DNA of 64,000 nt from a virus (IMGVR_UViG_3300020156_000001:170321-234320); one strand, 5' to 3'. Positions 1 through 40,230 are shown, counted from the stretch's first letter. Notes: generated by a model not told the origin, from the letters alone. Translations and numbers: made by a program.

Positions 1-75
1 CGATTCAATTGACTGGGCTTTCCCCGCACATGAGGAAATTGCTCAACGTTACTTTTCAAACATATTGAGGTAAAA

Positions 76-432
76 ATGAGCAAATCCTTGGAACTATTGG
101 ATCTTCTGCAGCGGACGCCTACAAACTCGGATGAGTTCTTTGAGATTATGGAAGCCCTGCAAACGCAAATCCAGCGGCTTGAACAAAATGCTGCGCGGGC
201 ACCAGTGGGTTCGGTAAAGAACCTAACAGTGGGACCAGCGGGTGCCGTTTATGCGGCTGAAATGATCAAGCAAGCGGAAAAGAATGCCAAGGATCCCAGT
301 TATGTTCCGTCTTGGAATCCTGGCAAGGAAGTCAAAGCAAAATCAACCACACCCGAGGATCTTGTTGAGGTTCTCAAAAATCCACTTATTAGCCCGGAAA
401 CACGGGCTTGGCTCCAACACAAGGGCGAATAA
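76..432 (+). CDS. hypothetical protein (118 aa)
   Basis: Intact ORF with a GAGGT Shine-Dalgarno 8 nt upstream of the ATG. No recognisable motifs. Confidence 0.5.
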   Translation: MSKSLELLDLLQRTPTNSDEFFEIMEALQTQIQRLEQNAARAPVGSVKNLTVGPAGAVYAAEMIKQAEKNAKDPSYVPSWNPGKEVKAKSTTPEDLVEVLKNPLISPETRAWLQHKGE

Positions 433-433
433 C

Positions 434-628
434 ATGAACCAAATCGAACAAAATCTTCGCAGACTGCTAAGTCAGTTTGAAGCTTCCATCCGTCGGCACG
501 AGTTTGAGCTTAACGTGGGCACTTCACAAGTTGCACGCGAAAAAACCGAAACCGACCTTAGTGAAGTTCGATCCGAGCTTATTAAGGAAGTTGCTCGGGT
601 TTCCAAACTTACTGGAGCAGGCTATTGA
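434..628 (+). CDS. hypothetical small protein (64 aa)
   Basis: ATG at 434 sits 2 nt after the upstream stop. Helical, charged sequence. The start is chosen inside the longer 284..628 ORF. Confidence 0.4.
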   Translation: MNQIEQNLRRLLSQFEASIRRHEFELNVGTSQVAREKTETDLSEVRSELIKEVARVSKLTGAGY

Positions 629-828
629 GTTCATCCCTGCTTACTGCGCAAATCTTCTTAGCAGCGTATCGGGATCAGCCTGATATTCTTGCGGATTTGG
701 ATGATTTACAGCGAACACAGGATGACCTCAACAACGCAACCAACGAACGCAAAATCTTAATAACCAACAAATACAATGAGAAGAAAAGTCGTCTCATTGC
801 AAAGATTAGGGAAAGGCAACGTCTATGA
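625..828 (+). CDS. hypothetical small protein (67 aa, TTG start)
   Basis: ORF overlaps the upstream stop codon. K/R/D-rich. Confidence 0.3.
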   Translation: MSSSLLTAQIFLAAYRDQPDILADLDDLQRTQDDLNNATNERKILITNKYNEKKSRLIAKIRERQRL

Positions 829-1220
829 CATATGCGATTGGATTCTTTGCGTTTGGTATTGATCTTACCGACGCACCTAAAAAGTACGATGGTGTTATCC
901 AAGCTCTCATCGAAGATGAAATTGCTGAATGCCGTTATAACGGCAGCGGCGATGAACCATCATTTATTGGTGTGGAAATCGACCAAATAGATGAGGCCAG
1001 CAACATGGGCTGGAAGGAAATTGTTGAGCTTAAAGACACGCTAAAAGCGGCAATGGCCCCAGGCAGCCAAGCTCGGATCGACTTTATCGAAAAGCTTAAA
1101 GCAGTTGCTGAGCATCTTGAAGATGGTGTTGAAGACGAAGATGACGCCACTGTTGATGAATTTATCGACTGGCTCAAGCGTCAACAGCCTGAAGTGTTCC
1201 TTACATGGGGTTCTAGCTAA
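825..1220 (+). CDS. hypothetical acidic protein (131 aa)
   Basis: ATGA overlap with the upstream stop. Strongly acidic C-terminal half. Confidence 0.5.
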   Translation: MTYAIGFFAFGIDLTDAPKKYDGVIQALIEDEIAECRYNGSGDEPSFIGVEIDQIDEASNMGWKEIVELKDTLKAAMAPGSQARIDFIEKLKAVAEHLEDGVEDEDDATVDEFIDWLKRQQPEVFLTWGSS

Positions 1221-1229
1221 GAGCCATTA

Positions 1230-1900
1230 GATCAGTCGTAGACTCATATGTCCCGGAGTATTCAATAGGATATTCCGGGATTATCATGGCTGGCTATTAT
1301 ATCAGAGTTCATGGTGTCAGATGTCGGGAAGAGATTCCATGGGCGATTTAGTGGGAGATTGATTGGTTTATTGGTGGGAAATGAACGAAGTTTATGATCT
1401 TCCTACAGATGCGAAGTTCTTTATCCCCCCGATACACAAAGCGTAAAACAAAACGCATTGCATATCAGGGGGATGAATACTGCGACTTCCTACGAGTGCA
1501 TCAGTTCTCGTTAACGGGATATCACGTAGGTGGTATGCGCGATCCTACAACTCCCGGCCATCCTCAGCTTGCGCTGACATACGGTTACACACCTCGCGGG
1601 TGTGCTCTACACGACAAAGCCTCACGAGACTACTTTTGCCGTGTCTTAGTGTTCTCAAACATCAAAGAGATTTCACTAATCTTTCTCTCACCGGCATCAC
1701 CGGGGCGACCATTTCATTCCTAAGAATCAGGCGGTCCAAATCGATCCGGAAGTCCTTTTGCATGGGGCCGGAGATTACTTCGTTCCTGTCGCCGGGAGTG
1801 CTCCGGCTCATCGCGCCCGTCTAAGTCCGAGTTCGCGGTAGAATATTCAACACACTCTAAGTTCCTACTGTAGTTTATAGGAACCAGAGTTGTCAATAAG
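1230..1900. other. About 670 nt without a credible ORF; highly structured; candidate ncRNA or regulatory region
   Basis: Several strong nested stem-loops (for example 1424..1470: CCCCCCGATA...GCGTAAAACAAAACGC...TATCAGGGGG; CCCGGA/TCCGGG at 1248..1278; CCGGAG/CTCCGG about 1765..1806). The only ORF (1394..1723) has implausible composition. A TTCCTAT/AGTAGGAAC box at 1861..1885 faces this region on the minus strand. Confidence 0.25.
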
Positions 1901-1908
1901 CACGTAGT

Positions 1909-2298
1909 TTATTTGGAAAAGCTGCCCATTAACTCGTGATACTCGCTGATGATATCGTTGTTTTTCAGCGAAACTTTGTGCTGGACAAAAAGCGAGTTGA
2001 GGAACAACACGGCAAACTCTGGGCTAACACGCCCAAAGCTCAACAGCGCGTTTTTGACCTTAGCATCGATCAGCACGTTGGGCTTTTCACCATAAGAGAC
2101 CCAAAGCTTCTGGATCTCATAGCCAACAGCCACGGTAAGCGCGTAAACGTTGGAATGTGATTCACCTGAAAGATCTTCGGCAAGATCCATGATTTGACTT
2201 GGAACGATCGCCGGCGGTACAATACCATAAGCTTCGGCAAGCTTGTCCAAGTGTTCCTTGAACGATGCTTGCTCCTGCTTTTTAGTTTTCTTCGCCAT
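1909..2298 (-). CDS. hypothetical protein (129 aa)
   Basis: ATG at 2298 preceded by AAGGAGATCGACA. N-terminus MAKKTKKQEQ. Confidence 0.5.
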   Translation of the reverse strand: MAKKTKKQEQASFKEHLDKLAEAYGIVPPAIVPSQIMDLAEDLSGESHSNVYALTVAVGYEIQKLWVSYGEKPNVLIDAKVKNALLSFGRVSPEFAVLFLNSLFVQHKVSLKNNDIISEYHELMGSFSK

Positions 2299-2656
2299 TG
2301 TCGATCTCCTTGAGAAAGCGTTCCATGTCTTCATGCGAAACGTTGTCGGAAAAGTCCAGCGGAATCATAAACGACGTCACTTTGCTGAAGGACTCTGGGG
2401 AAGCAAATGACGCCTTAATGTGGTCGACTTCCTCACGCATTGCATGAAGCTGATCGTCACTGATTGTGCCGGTGCGATCCACGTGTGCCATAAACTCGGC
2501 GACCCATGGGCTTTCCAGTACTGAGCGATAGTTGGCAAGTTCAGCTTCAGTTGGATGATCGTGCTCAATAGTCCATCCGTGTTCGATAAAGCCGGCGATC
2601 ACAGCAGGATCATAAGTCCGACCAAGCTCGATGATGAGAATCTTTTCGTTGCTCAT
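2282..2656 (-). CDS. hypothetical acidic protein (124 aa)
   Basis: ATG at 2656 preceded by AAGGAGATCGAA. Confidence 0.5.
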   Translation of the reverse strand: MSNEKILIIELGRTYDPAVIAGFIEHGWTIEHDHPTEAELANYRSVLESPWVAEFMAHVDRTGTISDDQLHAMREEVDHIKASFASPESFSKVTSFMIPLDFSDNVSHEDMERFLKEIDNGEEN

Positions 2657-2666
2657 TTCGATCTCC

Positions 2667-3071
2667 TTAGCGCCGGCCGCGTGGGCTGCGAATGTGATGG
2701 TCACGAGCCATCAGGAACTTGGGCTTTGTGGTGTTATTGGGAAGATCGTCTTCAAGCTCAAGCTTGATATCCTCAACCTTCTGAGGAATCTTGTAGTCAC
2801 CGAGCTTACGATCGTTGACCAGAGCAAGCGCATCGGGTATTGTAATACCGTAGAGTTCGCGTTCGGACATGCCGGCGGTGATCGAATCGATGATTTTGGG
2901 ATCGTAGAAGATATTCTGACCAGCTTCATCAACCGTCATTAGCGGACCGTCGGTCTTTTCACCAGTATCGACGAAAGTAACAATCCGTTCCGGATCCTGG
3001 GCCATTACACGAGCGATTGCCGCTGCAAAGCCAGAACCACCACCAACGATTACTGCAACCTTCTTCGTCAT
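2667..3071 (-). CDS. small protein with Rossmann-like GGGSG motif (134 aa)
   Basis: N-terminus MTKKVAVIVGGGSGFAAAIA, which is glycine-rich dinucleotide-binding-like. ATG preceded by AGGAGATCGAAA. Confidence 0.45.
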   Translation of the reverse strand: MTKKVAVIVGGGSGFAAAIARVMAQDPERIVTFVDTGEKTDGPLMTVDEAGQNIFYDPKIIDSITAGMSERELYGITIPDALALVNDRKLGDYKIPQKVEDIKLELEDDLPNNTTKPKFLMARDHHIRSPRGRR

Positions 3072-3196
3072 TTTCGATCTCCTATGCGTTTGTTATATTC
3101 AACTTAGCACAAACAGGAAGGGCGTCAACTAGTTTTCTTCCTATTTTATGAGCAACTTTTACAGCTCTACGGCGTTATCACCCGAAGAGGGTGAAC

Positions 3197-3952
3197 ATGA
3201 TTACAATAGGTACTTCCGGTTATTCCTACAAGCATTGGCACGGACCATTCTACGCAAAGGGTGAAAGAGATGAATTCGCCCACTTCATTAAACACTTTAA
3301 CAGCGTGGAACTCAACAACACTTTCTATGGTTATCCTCGGGATACATCTATAAGTAAATGGTATGAGAGGGCGCCCAGCAACTTCGTATACGCGGTCAAA
3401 GCCAATCAACTAATCACACATCGCAAAAAACTAAAAGCTGTCCCAGAAGCTCTGGATTTCTTGCGGCTTGTTAGTGGCTTGAAAGAAAAGCTTGGACCCA
3501 TTCTGTTCCAATTGCCGCCGATGTGGAACGTAAATGTGGAGCGATTGGAGTCGTTTCTCAAAGAGCTACCAACAAACCACACTTATACGTTTGAGTTCCG
3601 CAACCGCACATGGCACACTGAAGAAGTTTACAAGGTTCTCCGCAAATACAATGCTGGATTCTGCATTTACGATTTCGACTTCTACATGAGTGAGCCGATC
3701 CTCACAAGCAAGATGATTTACTTGCGCTTTCATGGCCCACGTCATCCTTATGCGGATTCCTATAGCAATGAGTTTCTAGAGAATTGGGCTGCATGGGCTG
3801 TGGAAAAGCACCGCAATGGCTTTGATGTCTTCTGCTACTATGATAACGACAATCGTGGTTATGCGGTAAAAAATGCACTCTATATGCGTGAGCAAGTGGA
3901 GAAACTTACAGAAGGCTCAAACACCAAAGCTATTGAGCCGGTTTTAGCCTAA
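3197..3952 (+). CDS. DUF72 (YecE-like) family protein
   Basis: IGTSGYSYKHWHGPFY ... FNSVELNNTFY ... LGPILFQLPP are recognisable hallmarks of DUF72 proteins. SD GAAGAGGG lies upstream of the ATG at 3197. Confidence 0.7.
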   Translation: MITIGTSGYSYKHWHGPFYAKGERDEFAHFIKHFNSVELNNTFYGYPRDTSISKWYERAPSNFVYAVKANQLITHRKKLKAVPEALDFLRLVSGLKEKLGPILFQLPPMWNVNVERLESFLKELPTNHTYTFEFRNRTWHTEEVYKVLRKYNAGFCIYDFDFYMSEPILTSKMIYLRFHGPRHPYADSYSNEFLENWAAWAVEKHRNGFDVFCYYDNDNRGYAVKNALYMREQVEKLTEGSNTKAIEPVLA

Positions 3953-4163
3953 CACGATTCAGCACAATAGCTGAGCCAGCCCTACCACGTTCAGCACCAA
4001 GGATCCGATATTTGTCGCCGACGTTACCGCGGTAATTTGGATCACTCGTATACCAAATATAACGCTCTTCCGCTTCGGTACGAAATTCGTAAACAAAGCC
4101 CTCAGAAGTTGGTGATACCTTTTGTAGACGCGCCTGGACGTCTATACGGGGTCCTGCAGCCAT
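3930..4163 (-). CDS. hypothetical protein (77 aa)
   Basis: ORF convergent with the DUF72 gene. Weak SD. Confidence 0.3.
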   Translation of the reverse strand: MAAGPRIDVQARLQKVSPTSEGFVYEFRTEAEERYIWYTSDPNYRGNVGDKYRILGAERGRAGSAIVLNRVRLKPAQ

Positions 4164-4172
4164 AGAAATGCC

Positions 4173-4544
4173 TTACTTCATAATAAACTGATGGTAGTGT
4201 CGGTCCCAAGCAAAGAACCCATTGATATTGCGAGTATATTCTCTAATCTCACTATGGCGGATCAAATAGCTTGCGCAAAGCGTACTAAACACGGCGTCGG
4301 ACACTGTTTCTGGTAACTCATAAAGCTGCTCAATGGTGATATCGCGGTTGTTATTGTGTTGTTTCCAAGTCTCCAACTCCGACTGCAACAGCGGGCCATG
4401 AGAAGGCATAGTGGTGTTGTCGATTATAAAGTTGAAGAAGTCGTTAGCTAGAACGATAACAACGGACTGAAGATCATTCTCATGCGCGATGACAAGCATC
4501 ATTTTTGCAAGCAATTCCTCACGGTAGTTCATATTGGACTCCAT
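4173..4544 (-). CDS. hypothetical protein (about 120 aa; start 4544 or 4532)
   Basis: Intact ORF. GGAG lies 7 nt upstream of the second ATG. Confidence 0.45.
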   Translation of the reverse strand: MESNMNYREELLAKMMLVIAHENDLQSVVIVLANDFFNFIIDNTTMPSHGPLLQSELETWKQHNNNRDITIEQLYELPETVSDAVFSTLCASYLIRHSEIREYTRNINGFFAWDRHYHQFIMK

Positions 4545-5082
4545 ACTCTAACCAACAATCCCACCACCACCAAAGTTCTAAGGCACAAAGTAAAGCAGCG
4601 GCATCAACTACCATTCGATCACCACGAGCAGCGCGTTTGGCTTCACGTTGTGCGCGTAGTTCCTTGTTTTCTTCCTTGCGTGTGGGCGCCAAACGTGGAC
4701 GCAATCCAACAACCATTTCATAGAATTCAACAGCACCGAAATGATCACCACGGCCGTTGTTACAGCCGGAACAAGCCATAACCAAATTGTTCATGCTGTC
4801 GGTGCCACCTTCACGACGGGTGTGAACATGCTCAAGTGTGGCAGCAAGATTTTTGCGGCCGGTTTCACCATAGCTGGGATGCCATGTATGCCGGCCACAA
4901 TAGCAGCACCGATGATTCTGTTGTTCCGAACAACGCAATAGCTTACGGCGACGAGCTTCCGCAAGCTTCATATACCACCACTCCTTCCGTGCATTGCTGC
5001 CAGGAAAGAGTTTCTCATTCTGTCCCCATTTTCGGTTAACAGCGTTTCGGAGGATATAATTGGCGTTGTGGTAAACGTTCAT
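4519..5082 (-). CDS. HNH endonuclease
   Basis: CCYCG ... H ... LEHVHTRREGG ... NLVMACSGCN fits the HNH CxxC ... H-N-H ... CxxC signature. Confidence 0.75.
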   Translation of the reverse strand: MNVYHNANYILRNAVNRKWGQNEKLFPGSNARKEWWYMKLAEARRRKLLRCSEQQNHRCCYCGRHTWHPSYGETGRKNLAATLEHVHTRREGGTDSMNNLVMACSGCNNGRGDHFGAVEFYEMVVGLRPRLAPTRKEENKELRAQREAKRAARGDRMVVDAAALLCALELWWWWDCWLEYGVQYELP

Positions 5083-5313: not shown

Positions 5314-5341
5314 GAAACAGGAACCCAAAGGTTCCTGTTTC
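5314..5341 (-). terminator. 12-bp stem hairpin (GAAACAGGAACC/GGTTCCTGTTTC, loop CAAA)
   Basis: Perfect inverted repeat. On the minus strand it is followed by ATTTAT. Lies 3' of the tRNA-like gene. Only a partial U-tract, so possibly an attenuator or operator. Confidence 0.4.
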
Positions 5342-5463: not shown

Positions 5464-5555
5464 GTTGCCCATTTGGTCCGCGTGGAGGGAATCGAACCCT
5501 CTCAAGAACGCTAATCTGGCGCTAAAAGGCTTATAAGACCTCTCTGACTACCAAG
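5464..5555 (-). tRNA. tRNA-like gene, 92 nt with encoded CCA, long variable region, non-canonical D and anticodon arms
   Basis: Minus-strand reading CCGCGTG ... GAGGG-TTCGATT-CCCTC-CACGCGG-A-CCA. Perfect 7-bp acceptor and canonical T-arm. Possible anticodon loop CTTATAA (UAU) on a G·U-closed stem. The D-arm does not fold canonically. Confidence 0.5.
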
Positions 5556-5589
5556 TCTCACGCGGTTATAGTCGCGTCGACTGGATGCG

Positions 5590-5898
5590 TCATATGAGGT
5601 CAATAAGATTATCAAACGCTCGTTGGATTGCGCGATAGTAAACGAGGCCACCAGGTGTGCCTTTTTCAAAAACCGGACGAGGATTTGTCCGAGCCATGTA
5701 AAGCATATTGGTAGCTTCAAACTCGCCGCAACGATATGCACGGATGTTTTTGGTACCAACTCTGCGGCTGCGAAGCTGGGCAGCTGGACGACGTCCAATC
5801 CGATATCTGTTGCGGTTCTTCTTGTAATAGTCGACAACACTTTTGCGGTTTGGTTTACCAAGTGCGTCCAAACGTTCTTTTGCACGATCAGCCAACAC
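5590..5898 (-). CDS. basic small protein, possibly a divergent ribosomal protein L20
   Basis: R/K-rich. Segment YYKKNRNRYRIGRRPAAQLRSRRV loosely resembles the L20 core YAYRDRRQRKRQFRQLW. Lies downstream of infC, as rplT does in bacteria. The C-terminal half does not resemble L20. Start (GTG 5898 versus ATG 5931) is uncertain. Confidence 0.3.
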   Translation of the reverse strand: MLADRAKERLDALGKPNRKSVVDYYKKNRNRYRIGRRPAAQLRSRRVGTKNIRAYRCGEFEATNMLYMARTNPRPVFEKGTPGGLVYYRAIQRAFDNLIDLI

Positions 5899-6076
5899 AG
5901 GTGTATTCCCTTCCGCCAAAATGTCCAACATAAGGACGACGAAGATCAGTCCGGCTAAGGTTGAGCACAATTGTCGTACCTTCAAGTGCCACACGCATGG
6001 ACTTGTCGGAACGATTGAGAACATCCGCGCTAACGGACTTTCCTGTCTCTGTGCTTGTTACCTTAACCTGGTTCAT
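5888..6076 (-). CDS. hypothetical small protein (62 aa) in the rpmI-like position
   Basis: Starts 1 nt after the infC stop. Not basic enough and not similar enough to call L35. Confidence 0.3.
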   Translation of the reverse strand: MNQVKVTSTETGKSVSADVLNRSDKSMRVALEGTTIVLNLSRTDLRRPYVGHFGGREYTCVG

Positions 6077-6642
6077 TAGTTTGCTTTCTTGATTGGCGCT
6101 AAAATAAGCAGCATTTGCTTGCCGTTCATCGCCAACGGAGAATCGACCTTGAAGTTAGCATGACCAACTGCATCTGTAAAGGAGTCCATGACCTTCTGCC
6201 CCATTTCACGATGAGACATTTCACGACCCTTGAACTTGACGACAACTTTGACCTTGTCGCCATCTTCGAGAAAGCCGATTGCTCGCTTTGCCTTGATGTT
6301 AAGGTCGTTGGTGTCGGTTACGGGACGAAGCTGAATCTCTTTCGTGTCAACAGCGTTTTCACGATTCTTACGCTTCTGATCCTTCTCGCGCTGCGATAGC
6401 TCGTACTTGAACTTGCCATAGTCAACAATACGAGCAAGTGGGGGATTGATCCCTGGATTTGTGACAACAAGATCCAAACCAGCTTCATCAGCTAGTTCAC
6501 GTGCTCTTGCCGTAGCAAGCTCACCAAGCATTTCACCATTAACGCCGGTTACACGAACAATTGGCGCACGGATTTGGCCGTTGATATCGTGGGCGTCTGT
6601 TGGGCGCTTATTCGCTTCTCGCGAGAAATTCACAGAAATCAT
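6076..6642 (-). CDS. infC: translation initiation factor IF-3
   Basis: Colinear match to bacterial IF-3: INGQIRAPIVRVTGVNGEMLG, VDYGKFKYE, KEIQLRP, DLNIKAKRAIGFLEDGDKVKVVVKFKGREM, MLLILAP. Confidence 0.9.
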   Translation of the reverse strand: MISVNFSREANKRPTDAHDINGQIRAPIVRVTGVNGEMLGELATARARELADEAGLDLVVTNPGINPPLARIVDYGKFKYELSQREKDQKRKNRENAVDTKEIQLRPVTDTNDLNIKAKRAIGFLEDGDKVKVVVKFKGREMSHREMGQKVMDSFTDAVGHANFKVDSPLAMNGKQMLLILAPIKKAN

Positions 6643-6697
6643 TCTCCTTAAGTTGATGTCCTATACATGCTAATATAGGACACCATTTGTGTCAACT

Positions 6698-7957
6698 TCA
6701 ATTCGTGCCAGTGCTTGGAGCTTCAGCATAAACGAGAATTGCTGGAGCATCGCTTGCAAAGAAATGGTCACTTAGAACAACCTTCTCAACACCAGCGGCT
6801 TTGAGATCGGGCAGTTCGTATTGGATCTTGAGCAGCTTCTTCTCAATAACATTGCGAAGACCACGCGCACCAACCTTACGAGTTTTTGCTGTTTCCGCAA
6901 TATGTGTGAGTGCAGCGGGTTCAAACACTAGCTCAACACCATCAAGCTTGAATTGCTTTTCAAACTGACGGACAACAGCATTCTTTGGTTCAGTTAGAAC
7001 TCGTACCAGCTGTTCCGCATTTAGTTCCTCAAGATGAGCAACAGTTGGAAGACGACCAATAAGTTCGGGAATCAAACCATACTTGGCAAGGTCTTCAGCT
7101 TCCACATGCGCCATTAGCGAACCATTGTGCGTGAGACGAGTTGCTTCTTCACGAACTTTTGCACCAAAACCAATGGAAGAACCATTGCCATCCATGCGCT
7201 TTTCGATAATAGCTTCAAGACCAACAAACGCACCACCAACGATAAACAAAATGTTCTTTGTGTTGATAATAACAGTATCGGAATTTGGATGCTTGCGACC
7301 ACCCTGTGGGCTAACGCGAACTTCGCTACCTTCGATGATCTTTAGCAAAGCCTGCTGAACACCTTCACCCGAAACATCGCGTGTAATGCTGAGGTTTTCG
7401 CTCTTCTTGGCCTTCTTATCGATTTCGTCCAAGTAGATGATACCGCGCTCGCACTTTTTGACATCGCCATCAGCCGAGCTTAGCAAGCGTGTGATAATGC
7501 TTTCAACATCATCACCAACATAACCAGCTTCAGTAAGTGAAGTAGCGTCGGCAATTGCAAACGGTACATCCAACATACGAGCGATGCTTTGAGCAAAAAG
7601 TGTTTTACCCGAGCCAGTTGGACCCATCAGCAAGATGTTGCTCTTCTCTAGCTCAACACCGTCAACTGTTGGATTATCCAAACGCAAGTAGTGATTGTGA
7701 ACAGCCACGCCAAACACCATTTTAGCGTCTTCTTGTCCAATGATGTATTGGTCGAGGAATTCTTTGATTTTGCGTGGGCTTGGGATTGTTTCATCGACTG
7801 TGATTTCGTTTGCTGCGGGCTTTTCTTCTAGGATATCCGCACAAAGCTTGGTGCATTCATCGCAAATGAAAACGTCCGGTCCTGCGATCAACTTCTTTAC
7901 TTCGTGCTGGCTTTTATTGCAGAACGAGCAAAAAAGGCTTTTAGCTTTATCAACCAT
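6698..7957 (-). CDS. clpX: ATP-dependent protease ATPase subunit ClpX
   Basis: N-terminal zinc-binding domain [26 protein letters not shown]. Walker [12 protein letters not shown]-like loop and a full-length AAA+ body. Confidence 0.92.
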
Positions 7958-13687: not shown

Positions 13688-13924
13688 TCAGGATTGGAGT
13701 TTAAGGATAAAAGCGTAACGGCGTTGGACTTCGCCCATTGCTTCCATGTATGGCTTAGCAGCTTCTTCCGCTGCCTTTTGTTTTGCCGCGTTCATTTCTC
13801 TGCGGAGGTCTTGAAGCTTGTCCCACATGTCTTTGAGGGCTTCGCTGTTTTCTCGTGCATCAAACTCGCTGCCGCCAAAGCTTGCAAGTGCGTTGCGAAC
13901 GTCGGTAAGAATCTTATCGCTCAA
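13688..13924 (-). CDS. hypothetical helical protein (78 aa)
   Basis: Intact ORF. Confidence 0.4.
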   Translation of the reverse strand: MSDKILTDVRNALASFGGSEFDARENSEALKDMWDKLQDLRREMNAAKQKAAEEAAKPYMEAMGEVQRRYAFILKLQS

Positions 13925-14469
13925 AGCATAAACCCTCCAGCATCACGCCAAGAGTCGAGCCGCTGTTGGCGATCAAAGGCATCCGGTGGAAACTCAACTA
14001 TAAAATGTGGCGCGTCTCGGTACTCGGCCAATGGAATCTTGTCCTTGTCAAGATATCCCTTTTCTTTTGCGACCTTCTCTTCCCAATCACGGATTTCTTC
14101 GCGAAGCTTTTCAACCGCATTTTTGGATTCACGAAGACCTTCGCGGGTAACTGATCGATGCCCTTTGATCACTTGGATAATGTTGGAGAACATGATGCTG
14201 GAACGGATGAAAAAACGATAGCGACCAACATCCTCAGGACCATAAGTGAGCATGTCAAAGATGATGCGTGAGGACCACTGTTTACCAAGAGTCTCACTTA
14301 GGCTGTTTATAACCTCGGTTGCCTTTTCCGCACCATGTACGCGCTTAATCGCACGGATAAACTTGAGCGAAATGTCTTGAACATCAGAAAGCTCTACTTC
14401 CGATGGTTGATCAAAACGTTCCCTTGCAGTCATCATGCGTGAGCCAGATACGTAGTTTGTGGTCATCAA
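13921..14469 (-). CDS. hypothetical protein (182 aa)
   Basis: Intact ORF. Overlaps the downstream start. Confidence 0.5.
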   Translation of the reverse strand: MMTTNYVSGSRMMTARERFDQPSEVELSDVQDISLKFIRAIKRVHGAEKATEVINSLSETLGKQWSSRIIFDMLTYGPEDVGRYRFFIRSSIMFSNIIQVIKGHRSVTREGLRESKNAVEKLREEIRDWEEKVAKEKGYLDKDKIPLAEYRDAPHFIVEFPPDAFDRQQRLDSWRDAGGFML

Positions 14470-14584: not shown

Positions 14585-15193
14585 ATGGCTTGGACTTATG
14601 AAGCGCGTATGACTCGCGCTATTGCAAAGCTTATCGACACCGCACGTATCGACCGCGTTGATACGTATAAACGTGCCAAATTCTTCGACAAGTATGCTTT
14701 CCGAGTTAGCTTGAATGTAAGCTTGGACCAGTGGGTCAATTTTGATGACCTCACTCAGTATTACCACACCATGTTTGATCCAATGGATGCACATTTGGTA
14801 TGTGTGAGAAGCACGTTCGACATCTTTGTTTATGGAAATGATCCAGCAATCCTCACGTGGCTGATCAAGCATCCATCCGTACAAATCAACAACATGATCC
14901 AAACGGATCCCGCAAGTTGGCATAAGAAGCTACCAAAGAAGAAGAACTTGGGTAAGTTTTTTGGAGAGTTTCGCTTCCGCATTCGTATGCGTGATGCCCA
15001 GTGGGGTGCAAAGCAGGAAAACGTTGACCAACTTGCAGAGCTGGAAATGAACCATCGAATGGTTCTTCGAAAGTATAATCCAGATGTCGCAGTTTACCGC
15101 GACACCTTTATCTATGTGAACAAGCTCAACGAAGTGCTAGTCCTCAAACTAATGTTTGGAGACCAAGTTGCCGAAGTTACTGAGCGCTCTTAG
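14585..15193 (+). CDS. hypothetical protein (about 202 aa)
   Basis: ATG at 14585 with GGAGAA upstream. The longer 14549 start uses TTG. Confidence 0.5.
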   Translation: MAWTYEARMTRAIAKLIDTARIDRVDTYKRAKFFDKYAFRVSLNVSLDQWVNFDDLTQYYHTMFDPMDAHLVCVRSTFDIFVYGNDPAILTWLIKHPSVQINNMIQTDPASWHKKLPKKKNLGKFFGEFRFRIRMRDAQWGAKQENVDQLAELEMNHRMVLRKYNPDVAVYRDTFIYVNKLNEVLVLKLMFGDQVAEVTERS

Positions 15194-15638
15194 GAACATA
15201 ATAAGCAGAATTGTTCTCATGCTCCCAAATCTCAACCTTTGAGATCCAAGCACGGCCCTTTGTCTTTTCTAGAATCAACGGGTTGATCGTATCGTAGACC
15301 CACTTTGCAGAACCTTCAATGCCCGGCCCATGACCCTTGGAAGCGTCCATAACAGTAACACGAACAATGTTAAATTCCTCAAGAGCTTGAATCTTGTCCA
15401 AGTGAGGATCCTCGGAGCTCAGCAAAAGCTTGTGATCCCATGCGTCTTCGATGATCTTCTTTGCATCACGAAGATCGCCAAAATCTACAACCCACATGCG
15501 CTCGTCGATTTCGCCTTCAAAGTCAAATCTAACGTAGCGACCATAGCCGTGAATCCACGCGCAATGGCCATCATCCAAATATTGACGATGGCCTGTGCTG
15601 ATTGGTCCGATTTTCTTGGAAGAACCGAAATTACCCAT
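15177..15638 (-). CDS. 6-pyruvoyl-tetrahydropterin synthase / QueD-fold protein (HGH replaced by HGY)
   Basis: Colinear with QueD. GHRQ ... DGHCAWIHGYGRY aligns with EGHKCGRLHGHSF. DFGDLRDAKK aligns with DFAELKAAFK. WDHKLL aligns with LDHHYLN. C-terminus E ... Y. Confidence 0.65.
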   Translation of the reverse strand: MGNFGSSKKIGPISTGHRQYLDDGHCAWIHGYGRYVRFDFEGEIDERMWVVDFGDLRDAKKIIEDAWDHKLLLSSEDPHLDKIQALEEFNIVRVTVMDASKGHGPGIEGSAKWVYDTINPLILEKTKGRAWISKVEIWEHENNSAYYVPKSAQ

Positions 15639-15722: not shown

Positions 15723-16082
15723 ATGCGCGGCCTTAGAGATGAAGAAAAGAAGCTTTGGGAGGACTTTACACAAGGTGTAAAGTTGGAGCCCTCTGACTCA
15801 CTTCCTTTGCCGCCAAAGACTACTCGTCCTCAGGTTCAGGATATATCATTTTCAACGGTGTTGGATCTTCACCATTATACGATCCAACAAGCCTACGAAG
15901 CGAGCAGTGCTCATCTTGAGCAGGCCTTCTATTTACGAATTAAGAAGGTCCAGCATATCACAGGGAAAAGCGGGCAAATATCTCAGGAGTTTGAAACCTG
16001 GGCAAAGCTGCATCCTAGAGTCCGTAAAATACAAAAACAAAATGATGGCGGAGCTTGGCTATTATGGCTAAAAAAGTCGTAG
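15723..16082 (+). CDS. Smr (small MutS-related) domain protein
   Basis: LDLHHYT ... ITGKSGQ ... NDGGAWLL matches the Smr LDLHG ... ITGKG core. Confidence 0.6.
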   Translation: MRGLRDEEKKLWEDFTQGVKLEPSDSLPLPPKTTRPQVQDISFSTVLDLHHYTIQQAYEASSAHLEQAFYLRIKKVQHITGKSGQISQEFETWAKLHPRVRKIQKQNDGGAWLLWLKKS

Positions 16083-38912: not shown

Positions 38913-39872
38913 ATGGTATTCAGACCAAATGAACTCAAGTTTACAGACTTGATGGCTGCCACACCCCATGGTACTTTGGTGGTGAATTCCCAAGGGCAAA
39001 TCGTTTTCTCAAACCATCAGGTTCACAACCTGTTTGGCTTTACTGAAGCAGAACTTCATGAGCAAAACGTAGACATACTGGTACCCAATGCCGCGCGTGG
39101 CTTCCACCACAATAATCGGAACACATATAATGCGGCTCCGCATCCACGAAGCTTTCCTGCGTCTGCAGGGCTGCATGGACAGCACAAGGATGGATCGCTG
39201 ATTCCCGTAGAGATCAGCTTGACGCCATTTGAAACAACTGCTGGAAAATTTACCCTAGTCAACATTATCGACATTACTGCCCGTAAAAAGGCAGAAGATA
39301 TGCGCGAAGTGTTGATCAAGGAACTAAACCATCGCGTAAAGAACAACATGGCTGTGGTAACTTCAATTGCCACGATGACACGCAAGTACACGGACAATAT
39401 CGACGACTTCTTTCTCGCTTACTCTGGCCGTATGAACGCGTTGAGTGCGGCGCATGATCTTGTGGCTTCCATGTTTTGGGATGACACTGATGCAAAAAGC
39501 TTGATTGTCAACGTGTTACGACCATTCCATCAAGCCGAACGTTTTCATATCTCTGGTGGTTATGCTAGAGTTCCTGCGAGTTCGGCAGCCACACTTGCTA
39601 TTGTTTTTCATGAACTTGCCACAAACGCTCTAAAGTACGGTTCATTACGAAGTGCCGAAGGACGTGTTGACATTTCATGGGAATTCAACAATAACAATGG
39701 AGTGGAATTCAATTGGATTGAAACTGGAGGGAATCCAATTGAACGTCCTACCAAGCGGGGGTTTGGTACGACAATGATTGAACGTACCATTACCAAAAAT
39801 TTCGGCGGCACCATCGACATGGATTATCGTCCAGAGGGGTTGCATTGTAAAATCGTTACTGAAAGGCTCTAA
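38913..39872 (+). CDS. PAS-domain sensor histidine kinase, HWE / HisKA_2 family
   Basis: N-terminal PAS (VVNSQGQIVFSN). ELNHRVKNNMAVV phospho-acceptor box. HELATNALKYG ... ISWEF ... NWIETGGNPIE gives the H, W and E residues of HWE kinases. Confidence 0.8.
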   Translation: MVFRPNELKFTDLMAATPHGTLVVNSQGQIVFSNHQVHNLFGFTEAELHEQNVDILVPNAARGFHHNNRNTYNAAPHPRSFPASAGLHGQHKDGSLIPVEISLTPFETTAGKFTLVNIIDITARKKAEDMREVLIKELNHRVKNNMAVVTSIATMTRKYTDNIDDFFLAYSGRMNALSAAHDLVASMFWDDTDAKSLIVNVLRPFHQAERFHISGGYARVPASSAATLAIVFHELATNALKYGSLRSAEGRVDISWEFNNNNGVEFNWIETGGNPIERPTKRGFGTTMIERTITKNFGGTIDMDYRPEGLHCKIVTERL

Positions 39873-39876
39873 ACTC

Positions 39877-40230
39877 ATGGCTAAGATCGTTGTTGTTGAG
39901 GATGAGTCTTTGATTCTTATGGTTGTGGTGGATCTTCTAGAAGAATTGGGGCATGAAGTGGTAGATTTTGTAAATGCGGAAACCGCGCTCAACTATATTG
40001 GCAAAGGCAATCAATTCGACATTCTCATGACGGACATGAATCTTCCAAAGATGAGTGGTCGTGAGCTTGCAGAGCAATTGCGGGAACTAACTCCGGATCT
40101 GCCCGTTATCTTTGCAACCGGTTATGTTATCGGCCGGGATGACCGCCTCAGCGCACCATTTTCCTGCGTAAGCAAACCCTATTGGTCTGATAATTTGAAA
40201 ACCGCCATAGGTGAGGTTTGGACAAAGTAA
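39877..40230 (+). CDS. single-domain response regulator (CheY-like receiver)
   Basis: KIVVVEDESLILMVVVD ... DILMTDMNLPKMSG ... PVIFATGY gives the receiver Asp pocket, the phospho-acceptor D in MTDMNLP, and the T/K positions. Starts 5 nt after the kinase stop. Confidence 0.8.
   Translation: MAKIVVVEDESLILMVVVDLLEELGHEVVDFVNAETALNYIGKGNQFDILMTDMNLPKMSGRELAEQLRELTPDLPVIFATGYVIGRDDRLSAPFSCVSKPYWSDNLKTAIGEVWTK

Follow-up and report, generated by a model that had tools for sequence, protein, structure and literature searches.

An IF-3/ClpX gene block with a five-armed tRNA(UAU) in a phage akin to Phosso and Atu_ph07

Why should a phage carry the genes for a translation initiation factor, a protein unfoldase and a tRNA side by side, and are such genes its own? 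The question is raised by a viral DNA stretch of 64,000 nucleotides (nt) (IMGVR_UViG_3300020156_000001:170321-234320; hereafter the window), in which a preliminary description had placed a gene for initiation factor 3 (IF-3) next to those for ClpX and a tRNA, an arrangement that is borne out by family scores and by the ARAGORN call. We conclude that the block, which consists of clpX, infC, the small open reading frames (ORFs) orf62 and orf102, and the tRNA gene, is very probably a conserved part of a lytic-type jumbo phage of root-nodule bacteria, ~480 kb in size and akin to Phosso, a Sinorhizobium phage, and to Atu_ph07, an Agrobacterium phage, with the functions proposed below. The block lies on the minus strand, from 7957 down to 5314.

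Table 1. Features of the block and other translation-related features, given as positions in the 64,000-nt window (aa, amino acids; bp, base pairs; pI, isoelectric point).
Feature	Position	Strand	Evidence or remark
clpX ORF, 419 aa	6698..7957	-	NF003745, TIGR00382, Pfam, alignment to 8e91
clpX-infC spacer, 64 nt		-	after clpX, before infC in minus-strand order
Sigma-70-like promoter TTGACA-17-TAGCAT in clpX-infC spacer	6667..6695	-	10/12 consensus matches
Hairpin over -10 region and 5' leader of infC	6657..6682		comparison with Phosso and L004
infC (IF-3), 185 aa from the more likely GTG start at 6633 (188 aa from ATG at 6642)	6076..6633	-	IF3_N and IF3_C, TIGR00168
orf62, 62 aa, pI 9.5	5888..6076	-	conservation in relatives
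orf102, 102 aa, GTG start, pI 10.8	5590..5898	-	conservation in relatives
Five-armed tRNA(UAU), 92 nt, CCA encoded	5474..5565	-	ARAGORN Ile(tat), fold, covariation
12-bp GC-rich hairpin GAAACAGGAACC-TTTG-GGTTCCTGTTTC downstream of tRNA	5314..5341	-	terminator-like site
HNH endonuclease gene, directly downstream of tRNA	4519..5082	-	Pfam HNH 8.8e-07
Permuted (two-piece) alphaproteobacterial-type transfer-messenger RNA (tmRNA), tag ANDNSVASQPVALAA	38164..38609	+	alpha_tmRNA 106.9 bits, tmRNA_permuted 112.8 bits
182-aa ORF, weak ribosomal L7/L12 C-terminal-domain match	13921..14469	-	E 2.4e-4, 21.8 bits (cut-off 25.9)

From its sequence, infC encodes a complete two-domain IF-3. The predicted product matches IF3_N (E 6.9e-23, 81.1 bits against a cut-off of 26.9) and IF3_C (E 4.2e-28, 97.6 bits against 34.8) in that order, scores 174.4 bits on TIGR00168 (cut-off 60) and reaches 3e-51 on phrog_9787, so that the first impression of a clear IF-3 homologue was well founded. 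Furthermore, its residues 15-183 align with residues 13-179 of E. coli IF-3 (8jsg_A, E 8.9e-44), an alignment to a 30S-solved IF-3 that is full-length and collinear and includes the lysine-rich linker. Judged by its alignments, the neighbouring clpX is likewise a complete gene for a full-length AAA+ unfoldase, as the preliminary description had it: its product reaches 581 bits with NF003745, for which the cut-off is 359, and 552 bits with TIGR00382, contains the Pfam domains zf-C4_ClpX (4.1e-18, 65 bits) and AAA_2 (3.8e-31), and is collinear, all the way from zinc finger to C-terminal end, with E. coli ClpX (8e91, E 2.4e-144). The 8e91 alignment places the N-terminal C4 zinc finger, Walker A (GPTGSGKT), the pore loop (GYVG), Walker B (DEID), the RKH loop, the ClpP-docking IGF loop and GARGLR; the protein thus joins the zinc finger to an AAA+ module with Walker A/B, pore, RKH and IGF loops and sensor-II, the features of a ClpX.

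During infection, the phage IF-3 would bind the platform of the host 30S subunit as bacterial IF-3 does, supplying or replacing a fidelity and anti-association factor. There it would block premature joining of the 50S subunit and proofread the start codon and the initiator tRNA, and it would keep initiation running, or bias it, through a long infection. The ClpX hexamer would dock on ClpP via its IGF loops and then unfold tagged substrates for degradation. These plausibly include proteins carrying the phage's own tmRNA tag, ANDNSVASQPVALAA, which the phage ClpX could read and which ends in VALAA, presumably the C-terminal motif that ClpX recognizes. Three observations speak against these proposals. 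Among the residues that we take to be 30S-binding in E. coli IF-3 (R99, R112, R116, R129, R131, R133 and R168), R99 and R133 are retained in the 8jsg_A alignment of the C-domain, but R112, R129, R131 and R168 are lysine and R116 is glycine. No mechanistic tie between ClpX and IF-3 was found beyond their conserved adjacency, and no SmpB was found among ten Pfam-scanned ORFs near the tmRNA.

Translation of infC starts more likely at the GTG at 6633 than at the ATG at 6642, which adds three codons, because TTCTGTGAAT, ~10 nt after a Shine-Dalgarno site, is common to the window, Phosso and the sister phage L004, Atu_ph07 has CGTGAAT at the matching position, and the public gene call for the same contig gives an IF-3 of 185 aa. 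The coordinates of the preliminary description hold for all genes with the exception of this start, which it had put at 6642. No AUU start codon is conserved on infC, whereas GTG is conserved in the window, Phosso, L004 and Atu_ph07; the hallmark of infC autoregulation is therefore absent, and we rejected an AUU start on the ATT that follows the window's upstream ATG, as this ATT is not shared by the relatives. Nor does the idea that many genes here use TTG or GTG starts and an unusually uniform Shine-Dalgarno sequence stand up in the syntenic 64 kb of Phosso, where 84 of 93 coding sequences begin with ATG and a Shine-Dalgarno core is missing from 26 of 93. The start-codon figures put forward for a phage IF-3 that might re-tune start-codon choice fail in the annotation of this relative. 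A longest-ORF count, which is biased, puts non-ATG starts at 33% in the window, against 10% in the Phosso annotation.

infC is preceded by a promoter-like site of its own, whose TTGACA recurs at the matching position in each of the four phages (the window, Phosso, L004 and Atu_ph07). The leader hairpin overlaps this site and has counterparts of 13 bp in Phosso and 9 bp in L004 whose stem sequence is different in each, and it is a candidate operator, processing site or attenuator. We infer that infC, orf62, orf102 and the tRNA gene form one transcription unit that adjoins clpX but is separate from it, with the GC-rich hairpin at 5314..5341 as its probable end.

Related phages keep this arrangement, a point on which the preliminary description had called for a check. 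The closest record, Phosso (469 kb), is 74% identical in nucleotide sequence over the block and has the identical order of ClpX, IF-3, two hypothetical proteins, tRNA-Ile(tat) and HNH, with divergent topoisomerase genes on the other side, and in Atu_ph07 (490 kb) ClpX and IF-3 are adjacent beside the same topoisomerase genes. Metagenomic contigs of 416-480 kb are syntenic for topoisomerase, ClpX and IF-3, three more distant contigs (one of 416 kb) keep these genes, and the exact 62-aa protein of orf62 is encoded on a metagenomic contig of 480,361 bp. Adjacency of ClpX and IF-3 is already published: in Sinorhizobium phage AP-J-162, clpX adjoins IF-3 (gp547) and topoisomerases, and the phage also has a tmRNA, S21, L7/L12 and a tRNA-Ile(UAU) described as phage-only (PMC11242549), while a comparative review of jumbo phages cites the IF-3 and ClpX proteins of Atu_ph07 (PMC7824862). 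The island is a further member of this known pattern, and the earlier remark that phage IF-3 comes mainly from metagenomic huge phages is outdated, as the isolates Atu_ph07, AP-J-162 and Phosso have it (PMC11242549; PMC7824862).

All three of these Rhizobiaceae jumbo phages, Atu_ph07 (AUZ94814/AUZ94813), AP-J-162 and Phosso (XYS97677/XYS97678), share with the window the divergent topoisomerase, ClpX and IF-3, as well as TTGACA and GTG before IF-3, and Phosso also shares the small ORFs and the tRNA-Ile(tat). In contrast, Atu_ph07 is without orf62, orf102 and the tRNA at this place, and the window phage is distinct from all three as a genome, matching the 480,361-bp contig. The window resembles huge phages surveyed for translation genes (PMC7824862) in having IF-3, a tmRNA and an ORF like the L7/L12 C-terminal domain, with S21 in its relatives; it differs from the metagenomic huge phages in that the genes here belong to a lineage of isolated phages, in which the order is kept over 51-71% IF-3 identity.

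The last gene of the unit is the 92-nt tRNA-like gene with encoded CCA noted in the preliminary description, and its product folds into five arms. The acceptor stem has 7 bp with C1-G72 and is followed by A73 and CCA, the D stem has 4 bp and a 4-nt loop (UGGU), the anticodon stem has 7 bp and the loop CUUAUAA (anticodon at 5533..5535), the extra arm (5507..5523) has 5 bp and the loop CAGAUUA, and the T stem has 5 bp and the loop UUCGAUU. The minimum-free-energy fold has -34.5 kcal/mol (z -3.2), and in the Phosso copy substitutions in the stems of the anticodon, extra and T arms compensate one another. Every feature of an elongator tRNA is present (7-bp acceptor stem, GG in the D arm, U33, a purine at 37, 5-bp T stem, CCA), as are the sequence features of an AUA-reading tRNA-Ile (UAU, A37, A38, A73). 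In Rfam there was no match to tRNA (RF00005) at the gathering threshold, and the best model of the clan was tRNA-Sec (RF01852) with 35.7 against 47 bits, an identity which we rejected on this score, on the anticodon (UAU, not UCA) and on the 7/5 rather than 8/5 stems; a suppressor tRNA was ruled out by score, stem configuration and anticodon. Like class II tRNAs for Leu, Ser or Tyr, it has a long extra arm, here of 5 bp with a 7-nt loop, but its anticodon is UAU. That the extra arm might serve as another anticodon arm for Ile (GAU), a remote idea, was rejected because its loop has A at the U33 position and U at the R37 position and its geometry was judged unfit. Finally, fold and covariation give acceptor and T stems of 7/5 and not the 8/4 or 9/3 of allo-tRNAs (PMC5389517).

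At least 128 distinct tRNAs, mostly on viral contigs, make up the family of which this tRNA is a member. UAU, A37 and A73 are present in 98-100% of the 128 members and U33 is kept, and the extra-arm loop CAGAUUA is near-invariant with a C-G closing pair. Covariation supports all five helices: in 23 diverse members, they pair in 100% of 635 cells and both partners vary at 20 of 28 pairs, whereas none of 500 shuffles reached any of these measures and slid controls paired in 36-47% of cells. A scan of IMG/VR with the anticodon loop and the extra-arm loop gave at least 119 loci, with ~105 family members, 94 of them called by ARAGORN, among those listed; the members listed all have the tat anticodon and are 88-96 nt long. 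When IMG/VR was scanned with the D arm only, leaving anticodon and extra arm unconstrained, all 66 distinct sequences had UAU; their loops were CAGAUUA in 40, CCGAUUA in four, CAGAUCA in one and unrelated in one, one had no such hairpin, and a further 19, scored one register off (CGCCAGA), are read as having the same CAGAUUA loop. Ordinary clusters of phage tRNA genes, with as many as 36 genes, contain the members, which are nearly always the sole UAU tRNA there.

The first of these patterns, applied to one genome per bacterial species, found family tRNAs in 7 of 120 among the matches listed, and 5 of those 7 copies sit in clusters of 13 to 31 tRNAs typical of phage DNA. One copy, of the body type called B below, lies in the chromosome of Allomesorhizobium camelthorni (NZ_JAAKZF010000001, 691..783) amid housekeeping genes (epimerase, BacA, QueG), with no phage genes seen within 6 kb. 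This locus, from whose like the family may have come as from a cellular source, rules out a strictly phage-restricted tRNA, although the family is mainly viral. BLAST also located unannotated copies in the cyanophages S-SKS1 (HQ633071, 2497..2587) and S-SRM01 (MW015081, 2499..2588), each adjoining a tRNA(CAU) and a tRNA-Leu(UAA). Standard pipelines under-call the family, whose members score below the Rfam gathering thresholds and go unannotated in these two genomes. The adjoining tRNA-Leu(UAA) of S-SKS1 (2802..2878) and S-SRM01 (3160..3232) is only 73-77 nt long by ARAGORN and has no long variable arm; a short tRNA-Leu(UAA) beside a long-armed tRNA(UAU) reverses the usual class I/II distinction, whereas other phage tRNA-Leu keep the long arm.

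Two body types carry the arm. Type A, to which the window copy belongs, has a short D arm and acceptor and T arms near those of co-resident phage tRNA-Leu(UAA/UAG), including G1-U72 and A73, while type B has a normal D arm and stands nearest, in most cases, to CAU tRNAs (Met or Ile2). Since the L004 copy, near the same IF-3 block, is of type B, the tRNA at this locus seems to have been replaced rather than inherited. L004 also has a 219-aa reverse-strand gene (6544..7203, minus strand) between orf103 and the tRNA. The occurrence of the same arm with the same anticodon on two scaffolds points to the extra arm and the UAU anticodon as a functional module tied to the reading of AUA. It is possible, though doubtful, that the 92-nt RNA stands for an undescribed class of five-armed tRNAs, mainly of phages, in which the arm is a portable identity or modification handle on two unrelated bodies. 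No description of a phage long-arm tRNA-Ile(UAU) was found in the full-text literature, coverage of which is incomplete, so that this absence does not establish novelty. Nematode nev-tRNA-Ile(UAU) and bacterial allo-tRNA(UAU) likewise join a long variable arm to UAU, an anticodon other than that of Leu, Ser or Tyr. However, nev-tRNAs are eukaryotic and Leu-type, allo-tRNAs are Ser-type (PMC5389517), and the present family is set apart from both by A73, the invariant loop CAGAUUA, two bodies and its occurrence mainly on viral contigs.

Which amino acid would such a tRNA carry? We favour isoleucine over leucine, on sequence features, because A73 and A37 are present, A38 is found in most type-A members, some type-B members have an Ile2-like acceptor stem, and isoleucyl-tRNA synthetase (IleRS) can read U34 via a conserved arginine (PMC11685878). 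Charged with isoleucine, the tRNA would read the rare AUA codon, which is poorly read by a high-GC host and which the host would otherwise read only via lysidine-modified tRNA-Ile2; the invariant fifth arm would be a recognition handle for the synthetase or a modification enzyme. This proposal has two facts to contend with: AUA makes up 6% of Ile codons in the window ORFs and 3.4% in the annotated genes of Phosso, so rare that a gain from a dedicated tRNA is doubtful, and the likeness of the type-A body to the co-resident tRNA-Leu makes charging with leucine possible.

A tRNA(UAU) charged with leucine, or with another amino acid other than isoleucine, would imply a synthetase that ignores the anticodon and an AUA codon that is recoded or ambiguous, as proposed for nev-tRNA-Ile(UAU). 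We consider this unlikely, even though the long extra arm together with A73 is like tRNA-Leu, the type-A acceptor and T arms match those of the co-resident tRNA-Leu, from whose anticodon UAA a single substitution gives UAU, and leucine is attached to nev-tRNA-Ile(UAU) in vitro (PMC3333845, PMC4300185). The type-B body, whose nearest neighbours are CAU tRNAs and not tRNA-Leu, also bears this arm and anticodon. The acceptor stem of the L004 copy, GGCCCCU, is one that we take to be that of E. coli tRNA-Ile2. Moreover, the D loop is cut to 4 nt, which removes the D-loop tertiary elements that E. coli leucyl-tRNA synthetase uses, and IleRS uses both A37, found in all members, and A38, found in most of type A.

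It is quite improbable that the RNA is tRNA-like but non-decoding, serving as a decoy for a host nuclease or modification enzyme, as a processing signal of the infC transcript or as a mimic of an rRNA hairpin. Its scores below the Rfam tRNA thresholds would fit such a role, and the invariant CAGAUUA loop suggests a sequence-specific binding partner. With its closing G, the loop also shares GAUUAG with what we take to be the 16S 790-loop region contacted by IF-3, a very weak clue; a 790-loop mimic was rejected, the likeness being one 6-mer and most members having no IF-3 gene nearby. On the other side, the 128 or more members keep the features needed for decoding (7/5 stems, GG in the D loop, a T loop of the UUCGAAU type and often CCA), as well as the 7-nt anticodon loop, U33, A37, A73 and UAU, and the placement in ordinary tRNA clusters, nearly always as the only UAU tRNA, likewise argues for a decoding tRNA, which is the reading we keep.

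Between infC and the tRNA lie orf62 and orf102, in the positions that rpmI and rplT occupy in bacterial operons, and the preliminary description took them for heavily diverged or replaced ribosomal-protein genes of a captured infC operon. They are genuine genes, as their conservation as proteins in relatives attests: orf62 is 85%, 73%, 61-65% and 52% identical across five relatives, and orf102, which is fast-evolving, is 34-39% identical in Phosso, L004 (P0004) and P0005. Because the start of orf62 overlaps the infC stop by 1 nt (TAATG) and orf102 overlaps orf62 by 11 nt, both are probably translationally coupled to infC. They are, however, lineage-specific orphans and, by the searches made, not ribosomal proteins. 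Neither matched any Pfam, NCBIfam or PHROG family at E <= 1, Ribosomal_L35p and Ribosomal_L20 included. For orf102, phmmer against 1.84 billion representative proteins returned three matches, itself and two relatives, and no L20, and its family profile against all PDB chain sequences gave nothing at E <= 10; the orf62 profile gave two chance non-ribosomal matches in the same search and no L35. The arginine-rich character reported for the orf102 product stands (17 R), but its supposed L20-like core was not found: the AlphaFold2 model is mostly helical, with a mean confidence (pLDDT) of 68.5 that limits the fold test, and Foldseek gave no match below E 5 and no L20. orf62 failed the bL35 fold test and is a small basic six-stranded beta-barrel of SH3/Tudor-like type; its assignment to PilZ was rejected, the sole support being a Foldseek E of 0.1 and the RxxxR and D/NxSxxG motifs being judged not intact.

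It is thus very improbable that a bacterial infC-rpmI-rplT operon was captured here with orf62 and orf102 as highly diverged L35 and L20. The likeness to that operon lies in the two ORFs after infC, which are small and basic, match rpmI and rplT in size and position and are translationally coupled; against it stand the negative family, phmmer, PDB-profile and structure searches, the absence of both ORFs after IF-3 in Atu_ph07, which keeps ClpX-IF-3, and the failure to detect orf102 in L343-L345, contigs of more distant relationship. The unit also differs from the bacterial operon in its GTG rather than AUU start, in having clpX instead of thrS upstream and in being closed by a tRNA. What is conserved as a unit is topoisomerase, ClpX and IF-3, with the promoter-like site of infC its own, rather than an infC operon. 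orf62, by contrast, persists in distant contigs, at times behind a different inserted ORF. Because it is kept beside IF-3 in most relatives checked (all except Atu_ph07) and is more conserved than IF-3 in L343-L345 (61-73% against 51-60% identity), it is a candidate partner of the phage IF-3. Both orf62 and orf102 would be co-translated accessory proteins that bind RNA or the ribosome, a weak point of the scheme.

A search of 5.8 billion proteins found as neighbours of the phage IF-3 ~50 unnamed proteins with identities of 47-71%, of which many are encoded on 200-480 kb contigs, followed by named alphaproteobacterial IF-3s at 41-45%. Because these phage-clade proteins are closer than the named bacterial ones, IF-3 is, on present comparisons, an old resident of the jumbo-phage lineage, neither host DNA nor a recent capture, and probably of alphaproteobacterial origin. 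There is practically no chance that the block is host DNA beside a prophage boundary, which the preliminary description had named as a way to be wrong, or a very recent host capture, since, bacterial in type as IF-3 and ClpX are and alphaproteobacterial as the closest cellular IF-3s are, these identities are joined by phage-type flanks syntenic with Phosso and Atu_ph07 (type II topoisomerase subunits, HNH, NUDIX) and by a uniform GC content of ~46-48% over the window.

Several further genes lie around the block. The HNH gene beside the tRNA has counterparts in Phosso, L004 and L344 and belongs to the flanking context, possibly as a mobility-related neighbour. The ORF at 13921..14469 is probably the counterpart of the AP-J-162 L7/L12 protein gp556, and the Phosso gene that seems to correspond to it by synteny bears the annotation hypothetical. 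A gene for ribosomal protein S21 lies 3.3-6 kb downstream of IF-3 in L004 (12162..), L343 (7852..8115) and L345 (8158..8418); none was noticed by eye in the window's ORF list for 1..4000, where the arrangement may differ. Directly after the tmRNA, on the plus strand, are a PAS/HWE histidine kinase (38913..39872) and a response-regulator receiver (39778..40230), a possible phage two-component pair. An Smr-domain protein (15723..16082, plus strand), of a family that we take to include ribosome-collision nucleases, adjoins a QueD/PTPS homologue (15177..15638, minus strand), and the syntenic region of Phosso adds a polynucleotide kinase and a nucleotidyltransferase, in keeping with a theme of RNA repair and translation.

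For phage biology, the IF-3/ClpX island adds one genome to the published pattern of Atu_ph07-like jumbo rhizobiophages, and the claim of phage-encoded L35 and L20 is removed. The tRNA is the one element of the block that may be new, and its family is a practical annotation gap for phage genomes. If it is truly undescribed, it would offer a direct test of the decoding or recoding of AUA without lysidine, and of an RNA arm as a determinant that can move between tRNA scaffolds. Should these five-armed tRNAs indeed form a class of their own, phages could decode AUA without the TilS-dependent tRNA-Ile2 of the host, or insert another amino acid at AUA.

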